Of a stretch of 64,000 nt of DNA, positions 7,232 to 60,850 are shown one piece after another. The notes under the pieces were generated by a model. The model did no database searches, was not told the DNA's origin, and worked only from the letters and a program-made list of their open reading frames with translations. A program made the translations under genes and the position numbers. The stretch's first letter is position 1; every line of letters starts with the position of its first letter. The DNA is from Mobula hypostoma (lineage: Eukaryota), in assembly GCF_963921235.1 (NCBI RefSeq), contig NC_086097.1:38318001-38382000 (forward strand), given 5' to 3'.

Positions 7232-8637
7232 ATAGAAACATGGAAAACCTACAGCACAATACAGGCCCTTCGGCCCACAATGCTGTGCCAAACAAGTACG
7301 TACTTTAGAAATTACCTTGGGTTACCCATAGCCCTCCATTTTTCTAAGCTCCATGTATCTATCCAGGACCCTATTGTATCCACCCCCACCATCATCGCCG
7401 GCAGCCCATTCCACACACTCACCACTCTCTGCATCAAAAAACTTACCCCTGATATCCCCTCTGTAGCTACTTCCTAGCACCTTAAAACAGTGCCTTCTCA
7501 TGCTAGCCATATCAGCCCTGGGAAAAAAGCCTCTGACTATCCACACGATCAATGCTTCTCATCATCTCATACACCTCTATCAGGTCACCTCTCATCCTCC
7601 GTCATTCCAAGGAGAAAAGGCAGGGTTCACTCAACCTATTCTCATACAGCAAGCTCCCCAATGCAGGCAACGTCCTTGTAAATCTCCTCTGCACTCTTTC
7701 TATGGTTTCCACATCCTTCCTACAGTGAGGCGACCAGAACTGAGCACAGTACTCCAAGTGGGGTCTGACCAGGGTCCTATATAGCTGCAACATTACCTCT
7801 TTGCTCTTAAGCTCAATCCCACGGTTGATGAAGTCAACCTCCACAGCAGCATTAAGTGTCCTATGGACTCGGACCCCAAGATCCTTCTGATCCTCCACAC
7901 TGCCAAGAGTGTTACCATTAATACTATATTCTGTCATCATATTTGACCTTTTTTAAGGTGTATGTGCTTAAACTTTTCAGTCTGCTATAAGTCATCCCTA
8001 CAATCGCCAAGGTCGTTTTCCGTAGTGAATACTGAAGCAAAGTATTCATTAAGTGCCTCTGATATCTCCTCTGGTTCCATACACACTTTTCCACTGTCAC
8101 ACTTGATAGGTCCTATTCTTTCACGTCTTATCCTCTTGCTCTTCACATACTTGTAGAATGCCTTGGGGTTTTCCTTAATCCTGCTCACCAAGGCCTTCTC
8201 GTGGCCCCTTCTGGCTCTCCTAATTTCATTCTTAAACTCCTTCCTTCTAGCCTTATTATTTTCTAGATCTCTATCATTACCTAGTTTTTTCAACCTTTCG
8301 TAAGCTTTTCTTTTCTTCTTGACCAGATTTTCAATAGCCTTTGTACACCATGGTTCCTGTACCCTACCATCCTTTCCATGTCTCACTGGAATGTACCTAT
8401 GCAGAAATATCCCCTGAACATTTGCCACATTTCTGCCGTACATTTCCCTGAGAACATCAGTTCCCAATTTATGCTTCCAGGTTCCTGCCTGATAGCTTCA
8501 TATTTCCCCTTACTCCAGTTAAACGTTTTGCTAACTTGTCTGTTCCTATCCCTCTCCAATGCTATGGTAAAGGAGATAGAATTGTGATCACAATCTCCAA
8601 AATGCTCTCCCACTGAGAGACCTGACACCTGACCATG
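7232..8637 (-). mobile_element. CR1 LINE, internally deleted (endonuclease end, linker, RT C-terminus, 3' UTR)
   Basis: ORFs with GEHFGDCDHN, IKENPKAFYKYVKSKR, LVRPHLEYCAQFWSPH. Confidence 0.9.
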
Positions 8638-11234: not shown

Positions 11235-12157
11235 TGGACGTTGCCTTTCTGAGACACCACTCCCTGAAGATGTCTTAGGTACTTTTTAGACTAGTACCCA
11301 AGAGATGGAGCGGACTAGATTTACAACCTTTTGCAGCTTCTTTTGGTCCTGTGCAGTAAACCCTCTATATCAGACAGTGATGCAGCCTGTCAGAATGCTC
11401 TCCATGGTACAACTATAGAAGATTTTGAATGTATTTGTTGACATGCCAAATTTCTTCAAACTCCTATTGAAGTATAGCCGCTGTTACGTTGGGACCAAGT
11501 TAGATCCTCAGAGTTCTTGAAACTGCTCACTCTCTCCACTTCTGATCCCTCTATGAGGATTGGTATGTGTTCCTTTGTCTTACCCTTCCTGAAGTCCACA
11601 GTCAGTTCTTTTGTCTTCCTGACGTTGAGTGCCAGGTTGTTGCTGCGGCACCACTCCACTAGTTGGAATATCTCTCTCCTGTACACCCTCTCGTCACCAC
11701 CTGAGATTCTGCCAACAATGGTTGTATCATCAGCAAATTTATAGATGGTATTTGAGCTATGCCTAGCCACACAGTCATGTGTATATAAAGAGTAGAGCAG
11801 TGGGCTAAGCACACACCCCTGAGGTGCGCCAGTGTTGATCGTCAGTGAAGAGGATATGTTATCACCAATCCACACAGATTGTGGTCTTCCAGTTAGGAAG
11901 TCGAGGATCCAATTGCAGAGGGAGGTACAGAGGCCCAGGTTCTGCAACTTGTCAATCAGAATTGTGAGAATGATGGTATTAAATGTTGAGTTATAGTTGA
12001 TGAACAGCATCCTGGTGTTTGTGTTGTCTAGGTGTGGAAAGCCATTGAGATTGCATCTGCCATTGACCTATTGTGGTGATAGGCAAATTGCAATGGGTCC
12101 AGGTCCTTGCTGAGTTCGGTCTAGTCATGACCAACCTCTCAAAGCATTTCATCACAG
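11235..12157 (-). mobile_element. Rex1/Babar-clade LINE RT fragment
   Basis: [39 protein letters not shown]. Confidence 0.88.
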
Positions 12158-24195: not shown

Positions 24196-24359
24196 CCTAA
24201 GCCTCCAAACAGTAGCTGGGATGTGGACTACAGACTACAATGGGAAATAGAAAAGGCATGTCAAAAGGACAATGTTATGATAGTCAGGAGAGATTTTAAC
24301 ATGCAAGTAGATTGGGAAAATCGGGTTTGTAATGGACCTCAAGAGAGTGAGTTTGTTAA

Positions 24360-25457
24360 ATTCTCTCTGTAATTGGATCCTCGACTTCCTAACCGGAAGG
24401 CCACAGTCTGTGCGGATTGGTGATAACATATTCTTCTCGCTGACGATCAATACTGGCGCACCTCAGGGGTGTGTGCTTAGCCCACTGCTCTGCTCTCTGT
24501 ATACACGTGACTGTGTGGCTAAGCATAGCTCAAATACCATCTACAGATTTGCTGACGATACAACCATTGTTGGTAGAATCTCAGGTGGTGACGAGAGGGC
24601 ATACAGGAGAGAGATATGCCAACTAATGGAATGGTGCCACAGCAACAACCTGGTACTCAACGTCAGTAAGACGAAAGAGCTGATTGTGGACTTCAGGAAG
24701 AGTAAGACGAGGGAACACATATCAATCCTCATAGAGGGATCAGAAGTGGAGAGAGTGAGCAGCTTCAAGTTCCTGGGTGTCAAGATCTCTGAGGATCTAA
24801 CCTGGTCCCAACATATCGATGTAGTTATAAAGAAGGCAAGACAGCGGCTCTATTTTGTTAGGAATTTGAAGCGATTTGGCGTGTCAACAAATACACTCAA
24901 AAACTTCTATAGTTGTACTGTGGAGAGCATTCTGACAGGCTGCATCACTGTCTGGTATGGAGGGGCTACTGCACAGGACCTAAAGAAGCTGCAAAAGGTT
25001 GTAAATCTAGTCCGCTCCATCTTGGGCACTAGCCTACAAAGTACCCCGGACATCTTTTGGGAGCGATGTCTCAGAAAGGCAGCATCCATTACTAAAGACC
25101 TCCAGCACCCAGGGCATGCCCTTTTCTCAATTTTACCATCAGGTAGGAGATACCAAGGCCTGAGGGCACACACTCAGCAATTCAGGAACAGCTTCTTCCC
25201 CTCTGTCATCCGATTTCTGAATGGACTTTGAAGCTTTGGACACTACCTCACTTGCTTTAATATACAGTATTTCTGTTTTTGCACATATTTTAATAATCTA
25301 TCCAATATACTTAATTGATTTACTTGTTTATTTATTATGTTTTATTTATTATTATTTTTCTGTCTCTGCTAGATTTCGTGTTGCACTGAACTGCTGCTGC
25401 TAAGTTAACAGATTTCACGTCACATGCCGGTGATAATAAACCTGATTCTGATTCTGA
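24360..25457 (+). mobile_element. Rex1/Babar LINE, 5'-truncated, RT C-terminal frame still open
   Basis: 299-aa ORF with [30 protein letters not shown]; tail aataaacctgattctgattctga. Confidence 0.92.
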
Positions 25458-26324: not shown

Positions 26325-26455
26325 TAATTCGATTCAACATATTGCCAAGAGCCATTTAATGTGTTCAGATTAACTCCTTTTATCCTTTTATCAAATGTAC
26401 AGTAATTCCCTTTTCTACCCCTGTATAACTGAAATGCATCATTCCAGTTAATGTA

Positions 26456-26678
26456 ACACACATCAAAGTTGCTGGTGAATGCAGCAGGCCAGGCAGCATC
26501 TCTAGGAAGAGGTACAGTCGACGTTTCGGGCCGAGATCCTGACGAAGGGTCTCGGCCCGAAACGTCGACTGTACCTCTTCCTAGAGATGCTGCCTGGCCT
26601 GCTGCATTCACCAGCAACTTTGATGTGTGTTGCTTGAAGTTCCAGCATCTGCAGAATTCCTCGTGTTTACGTTTTTAA
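26456..26678. repeat. Penelope-derived fold-back element, 82-bp arms, 15-bp TSD
   Basis: Arms 26455-26536 and 26550-26631; TSD attccagttaaYgta at 26441-26455 and 26679-26693. Confidence 0.9.
26537..26570 (+). ncRNA. Hammerhead core with truncated stem I
   Basis: TC CTGACGA A GGGT-CTCG-GCCC GAAACGTC GACT; only 2 bp of stem I remain. Confidence 0.5.
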
Positions 26679-39539: not shown

Positions 39540-40698
39540 TGAATCAGAATCAGGTTTAATATCACTGGTATATGTCATGAAAATTGTTGTTTTGTGGCAG
39601 CAGTACAATGCAATAGACAATAAAAACTAAATTACAAAAAGAAGTATATATAAACAAATAAATTAAGTAAGTAGTGCAAAGAGAGAGGGAAATAATGCTG
39701 AGGTGGCTTTTACATGTCAATTCTCCTCAAACTTCTCATGAAATATAGCCATTGCCTTGCATTTTTTGTAACTGTATCAGTATGTTCAGCCCAAGATAGA
39801 TCTTCAGAGACGTTGACACTCAAAAACTTGAAACTGCTCAACTTTTCCACTGCTGGTGTGTGATCCCTCAACTTCCCCTTAATAAAATCCACAGTCAGTT
39901 CCTTGGTCTTACTGACATTGAGTACAGGGTTGTTGTTGCAACACCATTCAACCAGCTGATCTGTCTCACTCCTGTACGCATCCTCGTCACCGTCTGAAAT
40001 CCTGCCAGTGATAGATGTGTCATCAGCAAGTTTACAGATGGCATTTGAGTTGTGTCTAGCCACACAGTCGTAGGTGTAGAGAGAGTAGAGCAGTGAGCTA
40101 AGCTCATTTCCTTGAGGTGCACCAGTGTTGATTGTCAGTGAGGAGGAGATGTTATTTCCAACCTGCACAGACTGTGGTCTCCCGGTGAGTAGGTCAAGGG
40201 TCCAGTTACAAAGGGAGGTACAAAGGCCCAGGTTTTGGAGTTTGTTGATTTGAACTAAGGTTATGATTGTGTTGAACACTGAGCTGTAATCAATAAGCAA
40301 CAGCCCAGTGTAAGTATTATTATTGTCCAGTTGATACAAGGCTGAGTGGATACCCAGTGAGATTGTATCCACTGTAGACCTAGTGTGGTGATAAGCAAAT
40401 TGCATCTGATCTAGGTCCTTGCTTAGGCAGGAGTTGATTCCGACCATGACCAACCTCTCAAAGCATTTCATCACAGTAGATGTGAGTGCTACTGGGTGAT
40501 AGTTATTGAGGCAGCTCACCCTGCTCTTCCTGGGTTCTGATATAATTGTCACCCCTCTGAAGCAGCTGGGAATCTCCAAATGCAGCAGTGAGAGACTGAG
40601 AATGTCCTTGAACACTCCTACCAATTGGTTGGCACAGGTTTTCAGAGCTCTACCAGGTACACCATCAAGGCCTGACACCTTGCAGGGGTTCACCGTCT
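39540..40698 (-). mobile_element. Rex1/Babar LINE RT fragment
   Basis: PVALTSTVMKCFERLV, QFAY, TGAPQG, KLADDT; reversed tail gaatcagaatcagg. Confidence 0.9.
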
Positions 40699-43600
40699 TA
40701 AGACCATAAGACATAGGAGCAGAATTAGGCCATCTGGCCCACTGAGTCTGCTCTGCCATTCGATCATCCTTTTTTTCTATCTCCTCCTCAAACCCAGTTC
40801 TAGGTGTTCTCCCCGTAACCTTTGATGCCATGTCCAATCAAGAACCTGTCAATCTCTGCTTTAAGTATGCCCAACGACCTGGCCTCCACAGCTGCATGTG
40901 GCAAAAAATTACACAAATTCACCACCCTTTGGTTAAAGAAATTTCTCCGCATCTCTGTTTGAAAGGGCGCCCCTCTATCCTGAGGCTGTGCTTTCTTGTC
41001 CTAGACTCCCACCATGGAAACATCCTTTCCACATCTACTCTGTCTAGGCCTTTCAACATTTGAAAGGTTTCAATGAGATTCCCCCCTCATCCTTCTGAAT
41101 TCCAGCTAGTACAGACCCAGAGGCATCAACGTTCCTTGTATGATAACCCTTGCATTCCTGAAATCATCCTTGTGAACCTCTTCTGGACCCTCTCCATGCC
41201 AGCACATCTTTTCTAAGATGGGGGACCCAAAACTGTTCACGGTACTCAAGGTAAGGCCTCACCAGTGCCTTATAAAGCCTCAGCATCACATCCTTGCTCT
41301 TATATTCCAGACGTCTTGAAATGGCATCTGCCTTCCTCACCACCGACTCAACCTACAAATTAACCTTCAGGGTGTTCTGCACAAGGACTCCCGAGTCTCT
41401 CTGCATCTCAGATTTCTGGATTTTCTCCCCATTTAGAAAATAGTCCACACATTTATTTCTACTACCAAAGTGTATGACCATGCATTTTCAACATTGTATT
41501 TCTCTTGCGATCCATTACCAACCTGATTTTCCTGATTGACCTGCATGTTAAAATCTCTTATGACTACCATAACATTGCCCTTTTGACACGCGTTTTCTGT
41601 TTCCTGTCGTAATCTGTGGGCCACCTCCCAGCCACTGTTGGGAGGCCTGTATATAACTGCCATCAATGTCCTTTTACCCTTGCAGTTTCTTAACTCAACC
41701 CACAAGGATTCAACATCCTCCGATCCTATGTCATATTTTTCTACCAATTTGATGCCATTCTTTACCAGTAGAGTCACACCACCAGCTCTGCCTACCTTCC
41801 TATCCCTCCAATACAATGTGTAACCTTGGACATTCAGCTCCCAACTACAACCATCCTTCAGCCATGATTCAGTGATGGGCGCAACATCATACCTGGCAAC
41901 CTGTAATATTGCAACAAGATCATCCACCTTATTTCTTATACTACATGCATTTAGCTACAACACCTTGAGTACCGTATTTGACAACAGACAATAGGTGCAG
42001 GAGGAGGCCATTCAGCCCTTTGAGCCAGCACCACCATTTACTGTGATCATGGCTGATCATCCACAATCAGTACCCTTTTCCTGCCTTCTCCCCATATCCC
42101 TTGACTCCACTATCTTTAAGAGCTCTATCTAACTCTTTCTTGGAAGCATCCAGAGAATTGGCCTCCACTGCCCTCTGAGGCAGAGCATTCCACAGAACCA
42201 CAACTTTCTGTGTGAAAAAATTTTTCCTCAACTCCGTTCTAAATGGCCTACCCCTTATTCTTAAGCTGTGGCCTCTGGTTCTGGACTCCCCCAACATCAG
42301 GAACATGTTTCCTGCCTCTAGCGTGTCCAATCCCTTAACAATCTTAAGTTTCAATCAGATCCCCTCTCATCCTTCTAAATTCCAGTGTATACAAGCCCAG
42401 TTGCTCCAATCTTTCAACATATGACAGTCCCGCCATCCCGGGAATTAACCTTGTGAACCTTCGCTGCACTCCCTCAATAGCTAGAATGTCCTTCCTCAAA
42501 TTTGGAGACCAAAACTGTACACAATACTCCAGGTGTGGTCTCACCAGGGCTTTGTACAACTGCAGAAAGACCTCTTTGCTCCAATACTCAATTCCCCTTG
42601 TTATGACGGCCAACGTGCCATTAGCTTTCTTAACTGCCTGCTGTACCTGCATGCTTACTTTCAGTGACTGATGAACAAAGACACCTAGATCTCGTTGTAC
42701 TTCCCCTTTTCCTAACTTGACACCATTCAGATAGAAATCTGCCTTCCTGTTCTTGCCACCAAAGTGGATAACCTTACATTTATCCACATTGAACTGCATC
42801 TGCCATGCATCTGCCCACTCACCCAACCCATGCAAGTCACCCTGCATTCTCATAACATCCTCCTCACATTTCACACTGTCACCCAGCTTTGTATCATCTG
42901 CAAATTTGCTAATGTTACTTTTAATCCCTTCATCTAAATCATTAATGTATATTGTAAATAGCTGTGGTCCCAGCACCAAGCCTTGAGGTACCCCACTAGT
43001 CACTGCCTGCCATTCTGAAAGGGACCTGTTAATCCCTACTCTTTGTTTCCTGTCTGCCAACCAATTTTCTACCTATGTCAGTACCCTACCCCCAATACCA
43101 TGTGCTCTAATCTTGCCCATTAATCTCCTATGTGGAACCTTATCAAAGGCTTTCTGAAAGTCCAGGTACACTACATCCACTGGCTCTCCCTTGTCCATTT
43201 TCATAGTTATATCCTCAAAAAAATTCCAGAAGATTAGTCAAGCATGATTTCCCCTTCGTAAATCCATGCTGATCCTGTTACTGCTATCCAAATGTGCTAT
43301 CCTTTCTGATTCTGCATCCCTAATGATTTGATATTCAGCATGTTGGTTGCAACTAAGTCCCATCACCTGCCTGCCCTTTCTGACAATCTGACTGCACGCG
43401 ATCTTCACTTTTTTTACCATCCATCCTTTCCTGAGTCCCTTCGCTCTGGTTCCCACCTCCCTGCCAAGTTAGCTTAAACTATCCCCAACAACTCTAAGAA
43501 ACCTGCCTGCAAGAATATTGGTCCCCCTCGGGTTCAGGTGCAACCCGTCATTTTTGAACAGGTCATACGTCCACCAGAAGAGATCCCAATGATCCAAGAA

Positions 43601-48985: not shown

Positions 48986-49213
<228 letters not shown>

Positions 49214-50349
49214 TAAATGGGTATGATTTTTGCAGAAGATTTTGCTTAGATGTTCATAATCGACCTGTGCATCATTCTGTTGAAACAATATGTGATTTTG
49301 GTTATGGTTCCTGTGAAATGATAGGCCAAGAGCTGCTCTGAGGAAATTATGACCCTTTATTCTTAATAATTGCTAAATATAACTGAGAACACGAAGGCAG
49401 TAGGGCAAACTTTGTAGCTGAAACAAAACTTGGCAGTAATGTGACCCATGGAGTGAATAGTGATATATTGTAGCAGAATGTAAATAGGCTTATGAAATAG
49501 GTAAATGCATGACCAGTGCTTGGAAAAATGGTGAGGTGAATAAGGGGATGTAATGTAAAATAAAGAATATTATTCTAAAAATGGGTGCAGGAGCAGAGAG
49601 ACCTAGTGGTATACATGCATAAATCATAAAACGATAGGGAAGGTTGAGAAAGCACTTGGTTCTGGGCTTAATTAACAGTGGTACTGTGTAAAACCAGGAA
49701 ATTATGCTGAAGCAAAAATCAATCTGTTGGATAAACAGTGATTCAAGCAGCATCTGTGAACACAAAGGGGATGTCAACATTTCAGGTAGGGACATAGTAT
49801 GAGGCCTGAAAGTGTGGAAGGAAGAGGTGAGAGTGAGAGGAAGACGGGGCTGATGAAGGTGGAATCGGATGAAGTGAGGTAGGGGATTACAATCAGAATC
49901 AGGTTTATTATCACTGACTCGTGAGATGTTGTGGTTTGTGGCAGCAGCACAGTGCAATATACAAAATATTACTACAAGTTAAAATAAGAAGTACAAGAAA
50001 ATAAATAAACAGTGTGAAAAGAAAGCAGCGTAATGAGGTAGTGTTCATGGACCGTTCAGAAATACGTGGGAGTGGAGGATAATGGGCCGATGGGGATGGG
50101 AAAGGAGATGGACAGTTTTGAGAGAGAGACTGGTGGGTGATGGTGGAAACAAATAAGGGAGGTATAATGGGCATATGGATCCAAGGAGGCAAAGGGATCA
50201 GGAAAGAAGGCCAAGGGAAAAAATGCCTGTGTGGAAAGGTGTATGGGTGACAGATGGAACCAGCTGAGGGTGGGGATTTGGGGGTTTAGAACATTTTTGT
50301 AAGGGTTGTAAGGAAACTCTCTTCCTTAAAATATGGCCATATGGTTATA

Positions 50350-50780
50350 AGATATAGAAGTCAAATTAGGCCATTTGACCCATTAAGTCTGCTCTACCAT
50401 TCAGTTGTAGCTAATGTTTTTTCAACCCCATTCTCCCACCTTCTCCCCAATTGGTAACTCACTTACCAATCAAAGGACCTTTCAATATCTGTTTTAAAGA
50501 CACTCAGTGATCTGGCCTTCATAGCGGTCTGTGGCAATGCGTTCCACAGATTCGCCACCCTCTGGCTAAAGAAATTCTTTCTCAAGTCAGTTTTAAAGGA
50601 ATGTTCCTTTATTCTGAGACTGTTCCCTCAGATCCTGGACTGTCCTACTAATCGAAATATTCTCTCCAGATCCATTTTATCCAGGTCTTTCAGTAAGTTT
50701 CAAAGAGGTCCCCCGCTTATCCGTCTGAACTCCAAGTTAACAGGCCCCAAGTCATCAACAGCTCCCTATAATTTAGGCCT
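50350..50780 (-). mobile_element. CR1 3' end fragment
   Basis: Similar to 40700-41150 (aaattaggccatt..., ttcgccaccctctggctaaagaaatt). Confidence 0.7.
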
Positions 50781-50914
50781 TTCAAGTTCAAGGGCAAGGT
50801 CAAATTTAATTGTCATTCAGCCATGCACATGAGTGCTGCCAGATGAAACAGCATTTTTCTGGGGCCAAGGTACAAAACATAGAACCGAACATTAACACAC
50901 GACACATATAGCAC

Positions 50915-53900
50915 GGGGTGGATGACCTAACAGAGGACAGTCACAGTGGTTAGGTCTCTAGCACTGAGTCTGTCTCTGTGACTCAGAACGGAAAGAGGGA
51001 GAAAAGGCATGCTGTGGTGATAGGGGATTTGTTACTAAGGGTAACAAACAGCAGGTTCTGTGGGCAAGAATATGATTCCCAGATGGTATGTTTCCTCCTA
51101 GTGCCAAGGTCTGGGATTTCTCCAGTGGGAGAAAATAAGTGGGAGGGTGAACAGCCAGAAGTTGTGGTCCATGTAGGTATCAATAACATGGGTAGGACAA
51201 GTGTCGATGCTCTGCATAGGGAGTTCAGGGAGTTAGGTATGAAGTAAAAGGGCAGGACCTCCAGGGTTGTGATCTCAGGATTGCTACCTGTGTCATGTGC
51301 CAGTGAGGCCAAAACTAGAAAGGTTTAATACATGGCTAAGACGTTGGTGTAGGAGGGAGCGCATAAGAGTTTTGGATCATTGGGCTTTCTTCTAGAGAAA
51401 GTGGGACCTATACAGAAGGGACAGTTTGCACCTGAACTGGAGGGGGACTAATACCCTAGCAGGAAGGTTTGTTAATGCTGCACGATGGGGTTTAAACTAG
51501 AGTTCAAGGGGATGGGAACCAGAGTGCCAGAACAGTTAGTGAAGATGTTGTGGAGGCAAATGTTGGTAAGACCTCAGACAAAGTTATGAATCAAAAAGTT
51601 GAGCAAGGCACAACTAGTGTCCTGGGCTGTCTGTATTTCAATGCAAGAAGTGTCATAGGAAAGGCAGATAACAGTGCTGAAGATGACGTCGCTGGTTTGT
51701 AAACAGAGGCAGTGTGTAGTGAGGAGAGGTTGTTGATAGGGCAATATTGCAGTCAACAGGATGAGTTGCAATGTAAAAGGCGAACAAAATGAAAAGGGTG
51801 AATACAGGACTGAAGGTGCATAGTATACGGAATAAGGTAGAAGAACTTGCAGCATAGTTGCAGATTGGCAGGTATGATGTTGTAGGTATCAGTGAATCAT
51901 GGCTGAAAGATTATAACTGGGAACTTAATGCCCAGGGATGCACATTGTATCAAAGGGGCATGTAGGAATGTAGATGGGGTGGTGTTGGTCTGTTGGTTAA
52001 AAAAAAAATGAAATCAAGTCATAAGAAGGAAGTGACATAGGGTTGGAAGGTGTTGAATCATTGTAGAAAGAGCTAAGGATGTGGTCTACAAATTACAACG
52101 GGAGATAGAAAATGCATGCCAATAGTCATGGGGGACTTCAATATGCAGGTAGATTAGGAAAATCAGGTTGGTACTAGATTCCAGGAGGAGGGTTTTCTGG
52201 AGTGCCTACTAGATGGCTTTTTAGAGCAGCTCGTGGTTGGATCCACTAGAGGATCAGCTATTCTGGATTGGGTGTTGTGCGATGAACCAGAATTGATTAG
52301 AGAGCTTAAGGTAAAAGTACCCTTAGGGGAAGTTATCATAATATGATTGAATTTACCCTTAACTTCGAGAAACAGAAGCCGAAGTCAGATGTATCAGTAC
52401 TACAGTGGAGTAAAGGGAATTACAGAGTCATGAGAGAGGAGTTGGCCAGAATTTATTGGAAAGGAACACTGGCAGGGATGACAGCAGAGCAGAAATTACT
52501 GGAATTTCTGGAAACAATTCAAAAGTCTCAGGATATAAAGAGGAAGAAATATTCTAAAGGAAAGATGACACAACTGTGGCTCACAAGAGAATTCAAAGCC
52601 AACATAAAAGCCAAAAAGAGACCACATACTAGAGCAAAAATGAGTGAGAAGTTTAGAGGATTGGGAAGCTTTTAAAAACCAACAGAAGGCAACTAAAAAC
52701 GCCATTAAGAAGGTAAAGATGGAATACAAAAGTAAGCTAGCCAATAATATTAAAGAGGATACCAAAAGTTTATTCAGATACATAAAGTGTAAAAGAGAGA
52801 TGAGAGTGAATATCGGACCGCTGGAAAACGATGCTGGTGAGGTTGTAATGGGGGACAATGAAATGGCAGATGAACTGAATAAGTATTTTGCATCAGTCTT
52901 CACAGTGGAAGACACTAGCAGTATAGTGAAAGCTCCAGGCGTCAGGGCATGAAATGTGTGAAGTTACCATAACTAGAGAGAAGGTTCCTGGGAAACCGAA
53001 AGATCTGAAGGTAGATAAATCACTTGGACCAGATGGTGTACACTCTAGAGTTCTAAAAGAGGTGGCTGAAGAGATTATAGAGGCATTAGTAATGTCTTTC
53101 AAGAATTACTAGATTCTGGAATGGTTCCGGAAGACTGGGAATTGAGAAGAAACTATAGCCCAGTTTAGTTTGCCTCAGTGGGTGGGAAAGATGTTGGAGT
53201 CGATTATTAAGAATGAGTTCTTAGGGTACTTGGAGGCACATGATAAAATAGGCTGTAGTCAGCATGGTTTCCTGAAGGGAAAATCTTGCCTGACAAATTT
53301 GTTGGAATTCTTTGAAGAAATAACAAGCAGGATGGACAAAGGGGAAACAGTTGAAGTTGTGAACTTGAATTTTCAGAAGGCCTTTGACAAGATGCGACAC
53401 ATGAGGCTATTTAACAAGCTATGAGCCCATGGTATTATAGGAAAGATTCTAGCACAGATAAAGCAGTGGTGGATTAGCAGGAGACAAAGAGTGGGGAAAA
53501 GAGAGCCTTTTGTGACTAGCTGCCGGTTACTAGTAGTGTTCCACAGAAGTCTGTGTTGGGACTGATTCTTTTGACGATATATGTCAATGATTTGGATGGT
53601 GGAATTGATGGCTTTGCTGCAAAGCTTGCAGACGATACAAAGATAGGTGGAGGGGCAGATAGTTTTGAGGAAGTAGGCTACAGAAGGTCTTAGACAGATT
53701 AGGAGAATGAGCAAAGAAATGACAGATGGAATACAGTGTCGGGAAGTATATGGTCATGCACTTTGGTGAAGAAATAAAAGGTTGAGTATTTTCTGAATAG
53801 AGAGAAAATACAAAAAAAAACAGGTGCAAATGAACTTGAGAGTCCTTGTGCAGGATTTCCTAAAGGTTAATTTGCAGGTTGAGTCTGTGGTGAGGAAGGC

Positions 53901-54690
53901 AAATGCAATGTTAGCATTGATTTCAAGAGGACTAGAATATAAAAGCAAGGATGTAATGTTGAAACTTTATAATGCACTGGTGAGACCTCACTGGAGTAGG
54001 TAAGCAGTTTTGGGCCCCTTATCTTAGAAAGAATGTGCTGAAAATGGAGAGAGTTCAAAGGAGATTCACGAAAATGATTCCAGGATTGAATAGCTTGTCT
54101 TATAAAGAGTGTTTGATTGCTCTGGGCCTGTGTTCACTGGAATTCAGAAGAATAAGGGGTGACCTCATTGAAACCTATCGAATTGTGAAAGGCCTCGATA
54201 GAGTGGAAGTGGAGAGGATGTTTCCTATGGTGGAGAGTCTAAGACCAGAGGACGCAGCATCAGAATAGAGGCAAACAGCAGGAATTCTGCAGATGCTGGA
54301 AATTCAAGCAACACACATAAAAGTTGCTGGTGAATGCAGCAGGCCAGGCAGCAGCTCTAGGAAGAGGTGCAGTTGACGTTTCAGGCCGAGACAAAGGGTC
54401 TATCAGAATAGAGGGGCGACCTTGTAGAATGGAGATGAGGAGGAATTTCTTTTGGGAGAGGATGGTGAATCTGTAGAATTCTTTGCTACAGGCAGCTGTA
54501 GAGGCCAAGTCTTTATGTATATTTAAGGTGGAAGTTGATAGATTCTTGATTGGTCAGGGAATGAAGGGATACAGGGAGAAGGCAGGAGGTTAGGGCTGAG
54601 AGGAAAATTGGATCAGCCATGATGAAATGGCAGAACGGACTAAATGGGCCAATTGGCCTAATTCTCCTCCTATATGCCATAGTCTTGTAT
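50915..54690 (+). mobile_element. Near-full-length decayed CR1 LINE (ORF1 esterase, endonuclease, RT, 3' UTR)
   Basis: VVIGD..VVVHVGINN, KLANNIKEDTKS, QHGFLKGKSCLTNLLEFFE, RRIRGDLIETY; many stops and frameshifts. Confidence 0.92.
54272..54401 (-). repeat. Penelope-derived terminus inserted in CR1, 13-bp TSD
   Basis: atcagaatagagg at 54259-54271 and 54402-54414. Confidence 0.9.
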
Positions 54691-55384
54691 AATTATTATA
54701 GCAGAAAACATACAGGTGCTAAAAAAAATTAAATAATAATAATATAGCCCAAGTCCCTACGTGTCATGGCCTGCAGATTGATGGTACATGGATGTTGTCC
54801 TAGAGTCATGTTTCTGCAGGAACAGCCTGCAACAGTTCCTCATTTGGACAATGCAGCTGCAAACAAACACAATCCAGCTCGTCTCCCACCAAGCAAACAC
54901 TAGAGGGCAGCCCCAATGTGAGGGGCCAGTCGAGCAAACACTGGAGGGCAGCCCCATTGGGAGGGGCCAGTCTCCAAACCAGTAGTGGCACATAGCCAGT
55001 TCTGCTGTCTCCTGCCTCAGTGGCCGCAGCAGTCTTCCTCAGAGCATGAATGAGGAACTAGTCCACACCACACTGAGGCCACACAGCTCCCCTGCTTTCG
55101 GTCTCGCCAATGAACAATTGAATTGGACACATAGTATTCTACATTACCAACGTCCAACAGGTTTTTGCAATCACAAACACTTCCGAGACATTCACCTGCC
55201 TGAATGTGCTGCCGCTGACACCTACTTCCCTGGGTGGCTGAAGCAGGCTGTAATACAGCTTGAAATAAATCCAACTCGACCACTATCCAGCAACTCACTG
55301 GAGACATGCAGTATTCAGTGTTCTTGATAACCAGCAGTGCCTTGCAACATGAAAAAGGACAATCACATTTGTGGTATTCTTCAT

Positions 55385-56660
55385 GTGAACCTCCTTTGGA
55401 CCCAGTCGAGAGCCCGCACAACTTTCCTTAGATATTGTGCACAAAGGGGCTCACGATTGTCCAAATGTAGTCTGAACAATGCCTTATAAAACCTCAGCAG
55501 TATATCCTTACTTTTATGTTCTAGATCAATCAAAACAAAATGCAAACATTGCATTTGCTTTCCTGCAATCAATCTGCAAGTTAACCTTGAGGAAATCTGG
55601 AATTCAGACTCATAAATGCCTTTGCACCTTTAATTTCTGAATATACTTCCTATGTAGAAAATAGTTCATACCTTTATCTTCCTACCAATATGCATAACCC
55701 CACACTCCTTGTGCTGTATTTTGTGTGGCACCTCTTTGCCCACTCTTCCAACCTGTAAGTCCTTCTGTAGACTCCCTGCCTCTGCAGAAATGCCTGTCTC
55801 TTCACCATTCTTTGATCATCTGCAAAATTGGCCACAGTGCCGTCAGTTCCTGCATCTGGATTATTTATGTGTAAAGTGGGAAGTTGTGGTTCCAAAACTG
55901 ACCCCTGGTGCACTCCACCAGTAACTGGCGGCCATACTGGAAGGATCCCTTTATCCCTTTGTTACCTTGCCTCTAAAGCTATGGGCTCTATGAAAGCCCA
56001 ATGTGCGAGATTTTGTCAAAGACCTTCTTGAAAATCCACGCTAACTAATTCACTATCTAACCTGCTTGGAACCGCAAAGAATTCTAACAGGTTTATCAGA
56101 TAACATCTCCCTTTAATGAAACTGTGTTGATGTCACCCTATTTTATCATGAGGCAACCAGAACTGAACTCATAACCCCAAGTGTGGTTTAACCAAAATTT
56201 TATAGAGTTGCAAAATTACCTCACTGCCCTTGAACTCAATTGCACAGCATAAGAATGTAAGAAGATAAGGAGCAGGAGTAGGCTATCTGCCCTGTTGAGC
56301 CTGCTGCTCCATTCAGTAAGATCATGGCTGATCTGGCCATAGACTCGTCTCCACCTACCTGCCTCTTAACCACTCTATCAACTTGCGCGACATGTTTGAA
56401 GGATCTGTGGATGAACTCCAAGGTCCCTCTACACTTCACAGAATCCTGGCATTAATCTTGTACTCTGCCTTCAAGTTTGATCTGTCAAAGGGCACACTTT
56501 GCACTTTTCCATCAGACACTTCACTACCCGGCTCTGCATCTTTTTAGTTATCCAGTTCTATATTCATTTGTAACCTACAACAACCTTCCTCACTGTCCAC
56601 CAACCTTCGTGTCGCCTGCAGATTTACTGATCCACCCTTCCTCTTCCTCATTTATAATCA
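55385..56660 (-). mobile_element. Cluster of decayed CR1 RT fragments
   Basis: QGSVLEPQL, NFADD, YKALFRLHL remnants. Confidence 0.7.
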
Positions 56661-56968
56661 TCACGAAGAGTGATTGTTTTAAATACAAAGGTGGATGGAT
56701 TTTGGATCTACAAAATAAAAGTTGAGTAGACGGGAATGCAAAGCTGAGGTCACTATCAAATCAGCTGTGGTTTTATTAAATGGTAGAGCAGCTTGAAGGG
56801 ACAAATGGTCTGTTCTAGCTCCTTGTTCACATGTGAAAAGACTGAATTATAAACTCGCATGTAATAGGTGGTTTCAGTTTTATAGAATGGAATTTTAATA
56901 TACTTGTAGTGATTTACTATCACCTTTAAAACCTTCAAAAAAGAGCAGAAAAGCTATATGAAAAAGTA

Positions 56969-57188
56969 AACAACAGGAATTCTGCAGATGCTGGAAATTC
57001 AAGCGACACACATCAAAGTTGCTGGTGAACACAGCAGGCCAAGCAGCATCTGTAGGAAGAGGTGCAGTCGACGTTTCAGGCCGAGACCCTGTTAGTCCTG
57101 ACGAAGGGTCTTGGCCTGAAACGTCGACTGCACCTCTTCCTACAGATGCTGCTTGGCCTGCTGCGTTCACCAGCAACTTTGATGTGTG
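56969..57188. repeat. Penelope-derived fold-back element, 84-bp arms, 13-bp TSD
   Basis: Arms 57007-57090 and 57105-57188; TSD atatgaaaaagta at 56956-56968 and 57189-57201. Confidence 0.9.
57093..57130 (+). ncRNA. Minimal type I hammerhead ribozyme motif (Penelope-type)
   Basis: TAGTC CTGACGA AGG-GTCTTGG-CCT GAA ACGT C GACTG: stem I UAGUC/GACUG, core CUGAnGA/GAAA, palindromic stem III ACGU, predicted cut after GUC (57125). Activity untested. Confidence 0.7.
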
Positions 57189-57201
57189 ATATGAAAAAGT
57201 A

Positions 57202-57625
57202 GTGAGGTAGCGTTTATTGGTTCAATCTCCATTCAGAAATCAGATGGCAGTGGGGAAGAAGTTATGTCTGAATCATTGAGTGTGTGCCTTCAGGCTCTGG
57301 TACCTCCCTTCTGATGGTAGCAATGAGAATAGGGCGTGTCCTGGGTGATGGGGGTACTTAATGATGGACACTGCCTTTTGAGACATCACTCCTTGAAGAT
57401 GTCCTAAATACTGTAGAGGCTACAGAATACTACAGAGCCCCCATCATGGAGCTGACTAAGTTTACAACTCTCTGCAGTTTTCTTCAATCCTGTGCAGTAG
57501 CCCCCACCCCCATACCAAATGGTGTTGCAGCCAGTTAGAATGCTGTCCACGGTACATCTGTACAAATTTTGATATGTTTTTGGTTCTTCTCAAACTCCTA
57601 ATGAAATATACCTTCTGTCGTGCCT
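57202..57625 (-). mobile_element. Rex1-like 3' fragment
   Basis: Reverse-complement similarity to 24840-25230. Confidence 0.7.
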
Positions 57626-58209
57626 AAGACTGAAGAGATTGAAGGGAAATACTGTAAGTGTGATGAGAAATATCTGTTTAAAGGGTGATCACCCAAAAGG
57701 TTGTCTCTTTTTGCATTGTAACCTCAGTGAATGACTGTGGGAATGGGGAACATTGTTGAACTTAATCATGGTGGGGTTGTAAATGTACAACAATGGTGCC
57801 TTATGTGAGAGAATCAATTCAGTGTGCAGAGGGAGACAGGCTCAGTGGAGGAGGTAAGGAGACAGGAATTGCAGCTCATTGAGGAAGACCAGAAGCAAAC
57901 ATACACCTCATGCAGTCACGATCTCTAGGTTTCCAGTTAATTTCCATTTCACTTATGTCCCGAGTTCCAAACTCGTGTATATGTAGAATTCAATGCTGAC
58001 AAATAATTGATGATTATAGTTAATGAACTAAACAATCAAATATTGAAACAAAAAAACAGAAATGATGGAAGACTTCAGTCAATCAAGCAGCGCTGGTTTC
58101 TCTTTCCACAGATGCTGTGCACTGGCTGAGTTCTTCCAGCATTTGTGTTTCTACTTTAAATTCTAGCATCTGCAATTTATGTATTTTGCAATTGAATGCT
58201 GAAAATTAG

Positions 58210-58500
<291 letters not shown>

Positions 58501-58782: not shown

Positions 58783-58919
58783 TAATTGTCTCATCTTTCT
58801 AGTAAATGCATTTCACTTAATAAATTGTATTTCAATAGCCAAAAATGTTTTTAAAAAGATACAGATTCATTAAGAAAGTACTTTTTTCTTTGCCAGGCAA
58901 AGTGCTGATTAGTTTTCAC

Positions 58920-60850
58920 AAACCAGATAAAATCTGCAGATGCTGGAAATCAAAGTAGCGCAGACAAAATGCTGCAGGAACTCAGCAGGCTAGGCAGCAT
59001 TTCTGGGAAAGAGTAAACAGTTGACGTTTCAGGCCAAGACTCTTCATCAGGACAGGAAAAAAGATGAGAAGTCAAAGTAAGAAGGTATGGGGAGGAGAAG
59101 AAGAAGTACAAGGGCGTAGGTGATAGGTGAAACCCGGAGAAGGGGAGAGCTTGAAGTAAAGAGCTCAGAAATCGATCGGTGAAAGAGATAAAGGGCTGGA
59201 GAAGGGGGAATCTGATAGGAGAGGACAGAAGGCAATGGAAGAAAGGGAAGGGGGAGGAGCAGGTAAGTAAATAAGGTAAGAGAGGGAAATAGGAATGGGG
59301 AATGGTGAAGAAGCGGGTGTGGGCAATTACCAGCAGTTTGAGAAATCGATGTTTATGCCATCAGGTTGGAGGCCATCAGATGGAATATAAGGTGTTGCTT
59401 CTCCAATCTGAGTGGGGCCTCATTGCAGCAGTAGAGGAAGCCATGGACTGACATATCGGAATGGGACTCGGAAGTGGAATTAAAATGGTTGGCCACTGGG
59501 AGATCCTGCTTTTTCCGGCAGAGTGTAGGTGCTTGGCGAAACAGTCTCCCAATCCATGTTGGGATGCAGATACACTGAGATACAGGAGGCCGCACCGGGA
59601 GCACCGGATACAGTAGATGACCCCAGCAGACTCACGGGTGAAGTGTCGCCTCACCTGGAAGGACTGTTTAGGGCCCTGGATGGTAGTGAGGGAGGAGGTG
59701 TAGGGGCAGGTGTAGCACTTGTTCTGCTTGCAAGGATGAGTGCCGGGAGGGAGATCAGTGGGGAGGGACGAATGGACAAGGGACACTCCTGGCACTATCC
59801 TTGTAAGTGGAACAAGTGCCACTCCTGCCCCTGCACCTCCTCCCTCACCACTGTTTAGGGCCCTAAACAGTCCTTCCAGGTAAGGTGACACTTCACCTGT
59901 GCGTCTTTTGGGGTCATCCACTGTGTCTGGTGCTCCCGGTGTGGCCTCCTGTATATCAGTGAGACCCGACGTAGATTGGGAGACCGTTTTGCTGAGCTCC
60001 TACGCTCCGTCTGCCAGAAACAGCAGGATCTCCCGATGGCCACACATTTCAATTCTACTTCCCATTCCGACATGTCAGTCCATGGCCTCCTCTACTGCTG
60101 CGATGAGGCCACACTCAGGTTGGAGGAGCGACACCTTGTATTCTGTCCGGGTAGTCTCCACCTGATGGCATGAACATCGATTTCTGGAACTTCCTGTAAT
60201 GCCCCCCAGCCACCCTCCCTTCACCGTTCCCCATTCCCATTTCCCTCTCACCTTATCTGATTACCTATCACCTCCTTCTGGGGCTCCTTCCCCCTTCCCT
60301 CTCTCCCATGGCCATCTGTCCTCTCCTATCAGATTCCCTTTCCTCCAGCCCTTTCTCTTTCACCAGAATCAGAATCAGGTTTATTATCACCGACATGTTT
60401 CATGAAGTTTGCTAACTTAGCAGCAGCAGTTCAATGCAATACGTAATATACAACAAGAAGAAAAAAGTAATTAAATAAGTAAATCAATCACAGTATACAT
60501 ATATTGAATAGATTAAAAATTGTGCAAAAAAACAGAAATATATTCAAAAAGTAAGTTAGTGTTCACGTGCTCAATGTCCATTTCAGAATCGGATGGCAGA
60601 GGGAAAGAAGCTGTTCCTGTATCACTAAGTGTGTGCCAATCAATTTCCCAGCTCTTTACTTCACCCCTCCCCTCTCCCCATTTCACCTATCACCTACTAC
60701 TTTGTACTTCTACCTCTCCTCCCCCCAACTTCTTACTTTGACTGCTCATTTCTTTTTTCCTGTCCCGATAAAGGGTCTTAGCCCGAAGCATTGACCTTTC
60801 CATAGATGCTGCCTGGTCTGCTGAGTTCCTCCAGCATTTTGTCTGTATTA
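58920..60850. mobile_element. Penelope-like element as a large inverted pair (- arm about 58920-59780, + arm about 59780-60850), with a Rex1-like tail inserted at about 60365-60635
   Basis: C..C.TCPY...FQVRRHFT.ESAGVIYCIRCSRCGLLY GIY-YIG remnants on both strands; flanked by the near-direct repeat ctgattagttttcac / ctgactagttttac. Confidence 0.88.

Follow-up and report, generated by a model that had tools for sequence, protein, structure and literature searches.

The window analyzed here is a stretch of 64,000 nucleotides from Mobula hypostoma (NC_086097.1, positions 38,318,001 to 38,382,000) that carries EML5 on its plus strand. The host gene was assigned through one exon that is 98% and 96% identical to EML5 of ray and skate, respectively, with EML6 matches at 75–90%. 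A short fold-back insert lies between the EML5 exons 49037–49174 and 58345–58437, in an intron of about 9.2 kb. The original prediction, made from the sequence of the window, had placed the hammerhead motif in an EML5 intron, in sense orientation, and the exon matches with the insert between two of them bear this out. The features are as follows.

49175–58345, plus strand: host EML5 intron, 5′ boundary approximate.
56956–56968, plus strand: TSD, left copy, 13 bp.
56969–57090, minus strand: inverted, 5′-truncated 3′ end of the element, family positions +129 to +7 (C3 = 0), without the CUGANGA box.
56969–57006, minus strand: Penelope "tail" of 38 nt, on the inverted arm only (distal end class).
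57091–57188, plus strand: sense, 5′-truncated 3′ end, tail-less, family positions −7 to +90 (proximal end class).
57093–57130, plus strand: minimal type I hammerhead motif, from sequence, with the register from folding and the layout per PMC4209133.
57189–57201, plus strand: TSD, right copy, 13 bp.
58919–59999, minus strand: older, longer relative of the superfamily, with a decayed Cys-linker and GIY-YIG-like frame, pyrimidine tract, hammerhead remnant and tail.
26455–26673, plus strand: sister fold-back in another EML5 intron, with the tail and the core (G-C at 10.1–11.1) on the sense arm and the 5′ strand of stem I truncated.

Exact copies of ATATGAAAAAGTA at 56956–56968 and 57189–57201 enclose the 220-bp insert (56969–57188), just as predicted. 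This repeat is not a chance match, since 25 of the 30 best-matching copies of the family have a TSD of 11–16 bp. The two arms, 57007–57090 and 57105–57188, are 84 nt each and 98% complementary, and both mismatches are CpG decays. The predicted hairpin has a free energy of −108.7 kcal/mol (z −19.6), and none of 200 shuffles folds as well. The contig of a second organism covers the left flank and the first 21 nt of the insert; the insertion is therefore common to two organisms, predates their split and has persisted. No empty site, recognizable as a joint skipping the whole insert, was found among the joints listed for the contigs of four sequencing runs.

The hammerhead letters at 57093–57130 read as predicted and include every core base: CUGACGA at 57098–57104, GAAA at 57118–57121 and UH at 57124–57125, with C17 at 57125. 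Stem I (57093–57097 with 57126–57130) had been given as 5 bp; of these five pairs, four are Watson-Crick and one is U-G. The proposed stem II, AGG/CCT, has a pair probability of 0.01–0.02 and gives way to the likelier register GGGU/GCCU (57106–57109 with 57114–57117; 0.5–0.75), in which A57105 is bulged. With stem II lying one base further on, position 10.1–11.1 becomes G-U instead of the conserved G-C, a pair that is typical of these ribozymes and stands outside the minimal descriptor; 57117 is a T, as it is in the dominant subfamily. A57105 is the extra nucleotide between 9 and 10.1, and ACGT at 57121–57124 supplies the palindromic 15.2–16.2. The same layout characterizes the minimal hammerheads of Penelope-like elements (PLEs), which have a type I core, a helix III limited to a palindromic 15.2–16.2, the extra 9/10.1 nucleotide and a short helix I (PMC4209133). 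The present dominant subfamily differs from them in its 4-bp stem II and in having G-U for the conserved G10.1–C11.1. The sequence and the published layout support a minimal type I motif with palindromic stem III and a cut site after 57125. It is not a canonical hammerhead, as no loop separates 15.2 from 16.2, so that helix III is not closed, and the model search that had been suggested returned no hammerhead family among 12 Rfam matches at E ≤ 10. The miRNA families that did match the insert are hairpin artefacts. The motif alone folds no better than its shuffles (z −0.19 and −0.85). The cut site is also the centre of a 6-bp palindrome (57123–57128), and 3 of the 50 loci listed are perfect fold-backs centred there.

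Longer copies, whose 3′ end matches the insert at about 95% identity, carry an upstream pyrimidine tract and a frame with a CKRNKCYTC linker and GIY-YIG. In one of these (L036:332–1204), GIY-YIG is matched by PF01541 at E 0.00019 and 22.1 bits, 0.5 bit below the cut-off of 22.6. The linker fits the CX2-5CxxC pattern that precedes GIY-YIG in both the Neptune and the Nematis clades (PMC8557442), and Neptune is preferred to Nematis on account of the vertebrate host. The EML5 insert therefore appears to derive from a Penelope-like element of Neptune type, of which it represents the 3′ end (pLTR), the clade being read from linker and host. Further traits of EN+ Penelope-like elements found in the family are 5′ truncation, an inverted or tandem partner, an optional tail of 30–40 bp and a TSD. 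An RVT_1 match in another locus (L052) was rejected as the RT of the element; it belongs to flanking LINE-like sequence fused in frame. Within the window, the relative at 58919–59999 shows the position of the hammerhead in the parent element. The intron of the EML5 insert also contains, at 54271–54392, a short antisense solo copy inside another repeat, with the tail and without the hammerhead core.

Across the 3.48-Gb genome, the exact 36-nt core has 35,322 copies and a reversed control has 0. The C11.1 variant of the core has 6,478 copies compared with these 35,322 with U11.1, under search patterns that differ slightly. By comparison, about 4,000 motifs were reported in coelacanth and about 9,000 in Xenopus (PMC4209133), against at least 35,322 exact ones here; the available text of that paper does not mention cartilaginous fish, to which the present host belongs. 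Similar short fold-backs number 6,585. The locus is thus one fossil among thousands, all short fold-back Penelope insertions with the known minimal hammerhead motif of their family.

Neither the motif nor the inverted arrangement is new. Pairs of minimal hammerhead motifs on opposite strands, 100–700 bp apart, were described in the pLTRs of metazoan PLEs (Cervera and de la Pena 2014, PMC4209133), and inverted 5′-truncated PLE insertions with a tail of 30–40 bp at one end and a TSD are already published (PMC3846280, PMC8557442, PMC8969392). The EML5 insertion resembles those of Arkhipova et al. 2013 (PMC3846280) and Craig et al. 2021 (PMC8557442) in its head-to-head arms, a 38-nt tail on one arm, the TSD and palindromes or microhomology at the junction. 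Unlike them, it has arms of only about 100 nt each and no coding sequence. Non-LTR retrozymes (PMC7229834; bioRxiv 10.64898/2026.07.22.740005) are likewise PLE-derived, hammerhead-bearing and non-coding; the EML5 insertion differs in being inverted, with one complete motif and no tandem partner. A retrozyme-like form does occur elsewhere in the family: at L015:1596–2619, a 233-bp unit is repeated 4.4 times in tandem with 98% matches. Each repeat holds the hammerhead together with beyond-tail sequence, and dimers could fold there; some of the repeats have a change in stem I. On the features tested, the EML5 insert can be counted among the PLE minimal hammerheads that sit in inverted, truncated insertions. 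The literature searched contained no proposal of twin priming for PLEs, none of fold-back masking and no description of the present cartilaginous-fish family, any of which subscription papers, repeat libraries and supplements may hold.

A one-tail rule could be measured as well. The earlier description of a tail "often at one end" (PMC3846280, PMC8557442) becomes, in this family, 6,424 matches with the tail on one side and 74 with tails on both sides, where about 1,567 would be expected if tails were independent. Several of the two-tailed cases listed join arms of different subfamilies and look like chance neighbours. When the first 50 of the 6,585 fold-backs were cross-checked by hand, the exact tail motif was present on one side in 40 and on both sides in 0. 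Furthermore, both arms come from one template, since subfamily-diagnostic bases agree between them: in a sample of 34 fold-backs, with the duplicate rows L026 and L032 dropped, the two arms have matching bases at three subfamily sites, in 30 of 30, 29 of 31 and 28 of 32 scorable insertions, compared with agreements of 0.42, 0.53 and 0.35 between insertions.

Fold-backs make up 10 of 28 distinct insertions selected only for an intact core, and all 10 are one-tailed; the other 18 have no partner within 1.5 kb. At the apex of these 10, the tail arm is longer in 3, the tail-less arm in 4, and 3 have arms of about equal length. In the EML5 insertion, too, the tail-less arm exceeds the other, and at L040, with a TSD of 12 bp, it measures about 1.1 kb against 265 nt. 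Tail-less solo copies with TSDs also exist (L037, L045 and L058). A top set of 30, chosen by likeness to the EML5 fold-back, consists of 30 fold-backs, 25 of them longer on the tail-less side; it is biased by that choice and was not used for rates. Fold-backs with a span of 151–181 number 6,585 against 1,719 at a span of 86–116, where uniform stops would give about a 1.9-fold difference; on these two bins, a hotspot of the apex at the hammerhead is only a candidate.

These arms point to how the fold-backs form. A cDNA that snaps back has no means of beginning the return arm past its own end or of adding a tail that was never copied, and therefore the EML5 insertion and L040 call for two cDNAs or a later one-sided deletion. 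The protein of an Anolis PLE cuts and extends both target strands, has two start sites bracketing the tail and takes uncleaved RNA as template (PMC11167929); this favours twin priming on a single RNA rather than snap-back followed by a later deletion. We see about an even prospect that inverted Penelope insertions are made by twin priming from two RT start sites of one RNA. The endonuclease would nick both target strands 13 nt apart, and each nicked 3′ end would prime reverse transcription on the same RNA. One start would be distal and produce the tail arm, while the other would be proximal, 38 nt upstream, and produce the tail-less arm. Both cDNAs would stop near the hammerhead and be joined, leaving the 13-bp TSD. 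Such a route would explain the one-tail rule, and it is a new reading of these insertions.

The Anolis element, Poseidon of Anolis carolinensis or PAc (Frangieh et al. 2024, PMC11167929), resembles the present family in its two end classes one tail apart, its uncleaved RNA template and a hammerhead just upstream of the start sites. It belongs to a different clade, the present family being of the Cys-linker type, and the accessible text of that report does not link the two start sites and two-strand extension of PAc to inverted copies. In L1, twin priming is priming by both target strands, after which a single TSD encloses an inversion and the joint shows microhomology. The two L1 arms copy different parts of the RNA, whereas both arms here copy the same stretch, so that twin priming would here require strand displacement or a transcript with a second copy of the pLTR.

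Alternatively, the same neutral fossil could have been produced by snap-back, in which the cDNA folds and is copied back, the endonuclease resolves the product at the tail boundary, and deletions at the apex follow. This would account for the identical arms and the single tail, and self-priming and endonuclease-mediated resolution, rather than twin priming, are what the available accounts of inverted PLE insertions propose (PMC3846280, PMC8557442). Perfect or near-perfect palindromic apices exist at several of the loci listed; for instance, a near-perfect palindrome of 2.3 kb (L059/L060, G000:C1 ~2444600–2446950) has arms of about 1.1 kb that are 98% alike, one tail and a 13-bp TSD. Nevertheless, snap-back predicts that the tail arm reaches at least as far as the tail-less arm at the apex, and the reverse is seen in the EML5 insertion and in 4 of the 10 core-selected fold-backs, once by about 0.9 kb. 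Apex deletion is a known process in palindromes and could mimic this asymmetry, and the identity of the arms could also stem from snap-back or gene conversion. We hold snap-back to be possible, if somewhat unlikely. By either route, the fold-back most likely arose at insertion, as a routine product of the way this family inserts, and not through selection to hide a ribozyme.

Whatever its origin, the upstream arm is predicted to affect the motif. Constraining the fold to the hammerhead shape has a cost of 4.4 kcal/mol for the sense arm by itself but 47.7 kcal/mol with the antisense arm, and the fold prediction gives the latter cost already for a transcript ending at 57135. Similarly, helix I (4–5 bp) and helix II have predicted pair probabilities of 0.5–0.76 without the upstream arm and 0.0 with it. 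The pairing of the upstream 84-nt arm with the 3′ half of the ribozyme had been predicted, and on these folding energies the arm almost certainly sequesters the motif. In the EML5 pre-mRNA, the insert would form an 84-bp hairpin that locks the motif up. Because the head-to-head geometry always transcribes the antisense arm first (here 56969–57090), masking should hold for any such copy.

Whether there is an activity to mask is a separate matter. The motif had been proposed to cut the pre-mRNA if freed from the arm, which published tests of its relatives do not support: a minimal hammerhead showed no cleavage as a monomer and low cleavage as a dimer (PMC4209133), and the Anolis hammerhead cleaved only with the protein, its insertion did not need cleavage, and no reads ended at its site (PMC11167929). 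The EML5 motif cannot make a helix III by itself and depends on a partner copy, and its G10.1–C11.1 pair is lost; across 114 kb of EML5, just one further sense core was found, 30 kb upstream, inside a separate hairpin and with stem I truncated. In 6 of 9 hand-picked solo copies, folded in their own context, stem I is predicted to be unformed (≤0.01). Tens of thousands of family copies run intact through the cut site. The motif of the EML5 insert is thus probably nearly inert as a lone copy. Some cleavage in vivo within the family may still occur: the 5′ boundary falls at the cut site in 576 copies, compared with 167 at a control position 3 nt away. Among 100 of the former listed, however, a hand count gave 53 whose three flanking bases would equally fit element-internal GAC microhomology or the loss of a single base.

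Our preferred reading, which we consider quite probable, is that the insert is a dead, 5′-truncated head-to-head pLTR insertion, a neutral repeat in which the hammerhead is a passenger of the family. The intron would tolerate it as such because the motif is nearly inert as a lone copy anyway; its neutrality in the EML5 intron is suggested by the same reasoning, and masking is probably irrelevant to its tolerance.

The original prediction suggested instead that masking may explain tolerance in introns. On such a self-silencing reading, a free motif would cleave the pre-mRNA, perhaps helped by the protein of the element or a second copy, so that sense solos would be purged from introns while fold-backs survive. 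The test of orientation that it called for was applied to a census of 164 kb of intron, comprising the window and L061–L070, where the orientation of L066–L070 was inferred from colinear family matches. The census contains 7 fold-backs and 14 solos. All three intact sense cores lie in fold-backs (the EML5 insert included), whereas all three intact antisense cores are solo, and none of the 6 sense solos retains an intact core. The pattern leans the predicted way without reaching significance (Fisher two-sided p = 0.1), and 2 of the 6 intact cores have a damaged stem I. The solos themselves are 6 sense and 8 antisense (p = 0.79), which does not suggest purging. A Pfam scan of 150 of the 167 unmasked frames in the 28 core-selected loci found no host exons by which these loci could be oriented, and only two mobile-element domains.

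The rise of the hammerhead-shape cost under the antisense arm also speaks for self-silencing, as do the depletion of tandem retrozymes from Xenopus introns (bioRxiv 10.64898/2026.07.22.740005) and the finding that intronic ribozyme scission can lower splicing (PMC10919898). Against it, the cases tested were inactive as monomers or dependent on protein, stem II is weak and stem III absent, and stem I is predicted to be unformed already in most of the hand-picked solos. The next EML5 exon is only about 1.2 kb from the cut site, a distance that the elongation rate given for mammals in PMC10919898 would cover in about 20 s. About a third of the copies fold back wherever they are located. Long sense copies moreover carry a splice-acceptor-like signal upstream of the motif (17 of 30 loci), a rival cause of any orientation bias. 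We therefore find masking as the explanation of tolerance unsupported, fold-backs being a routine insertion product, and regard self-silencing as improbable. If it were true, the insertion mechanism would give about a third of the copies an upstream antisense off-switch, and introns would keep sense cores mainly as fold-backs, across thousands of genes.

That the host has co-opted the hairpin or ribozyme to regulate EML5 is very unlikely. The left junction is common to a second organism, and a hairpin of this kind is a potential substrate for editing or Dicer, yet the insert is one of thousands of like copies with CpG decay as in its siblings, and the Rfam miRNA matches, which score far below the gathering thresholds, merely pick up the hairpin. 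A pair of independent insertions, or a DNA element of MITE type whose terminal inverted repeats just look like a hammerhead, would fit a short, palindromic, high-copy repeat but are refuted by the single TSD spanning both arms, the unlike termini (tail versus none), arm lengths from less than 50 nt to more than 1 kb and the continuation of longer copies into the GIY-YIG frame, and deserve next to no credence.

With the insert read as a neutral fossil, the single locus matters little, but its family is a large natural data set for two questions. One concerns the way in which inverted copies and the tail of Penelope-like elements are produced; any model of formation is constrained by the exactly-one-tail rule, by the use of a single template and by the finding that either arm may be longer, all of which can be tested in the existing in vitro system. 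The other is whether any cutting by minimal hammerheads takes place in vivo. With gene annotation, a test of selection becomes possible on the intact cores, which number tens of thousands and occur in both orientations, masked as well as unmasked.

The acceptor-like signal consists of a branch-point-like sequence, a pyrimidine tract and an AG that ends exactly at the 5′ strand of stem I; it lies at about 1470–1500 (element orientation) in L047, L036 and L048. The label "branch-point-like" follows the branch-point consensus. The EML5 insertion starts at the G of this AG. The segment with the branch-point-like sequence and pyrimidine tract may pair with the core and so hide the hammerhead until spliced. 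The same acceptor-like layout is reported for the intron of the D. virilis Penelope (PMC4209133).

Several other sequences were noticed beside these copies. Decayed LINE-type RT or endonuclease frames, most of them antisense to the gene, lie in EML5 introns at 7985–8497, 11456–12067, 24311–25231, 39710–40837 and 41433–43072. A frame on the minus strand of L013:1–315, about 1.3 kb from a two-tailed composite insertion, had no Pfam match and resembles a SMAD2/3 gene in its first coding exon. About 0.45 Mb upstream of EML5, at G000:C1:37780623–37780892, one of the exons of the gene is matched a second time (residues 395–484, 88%), possibly through a partial duplication.
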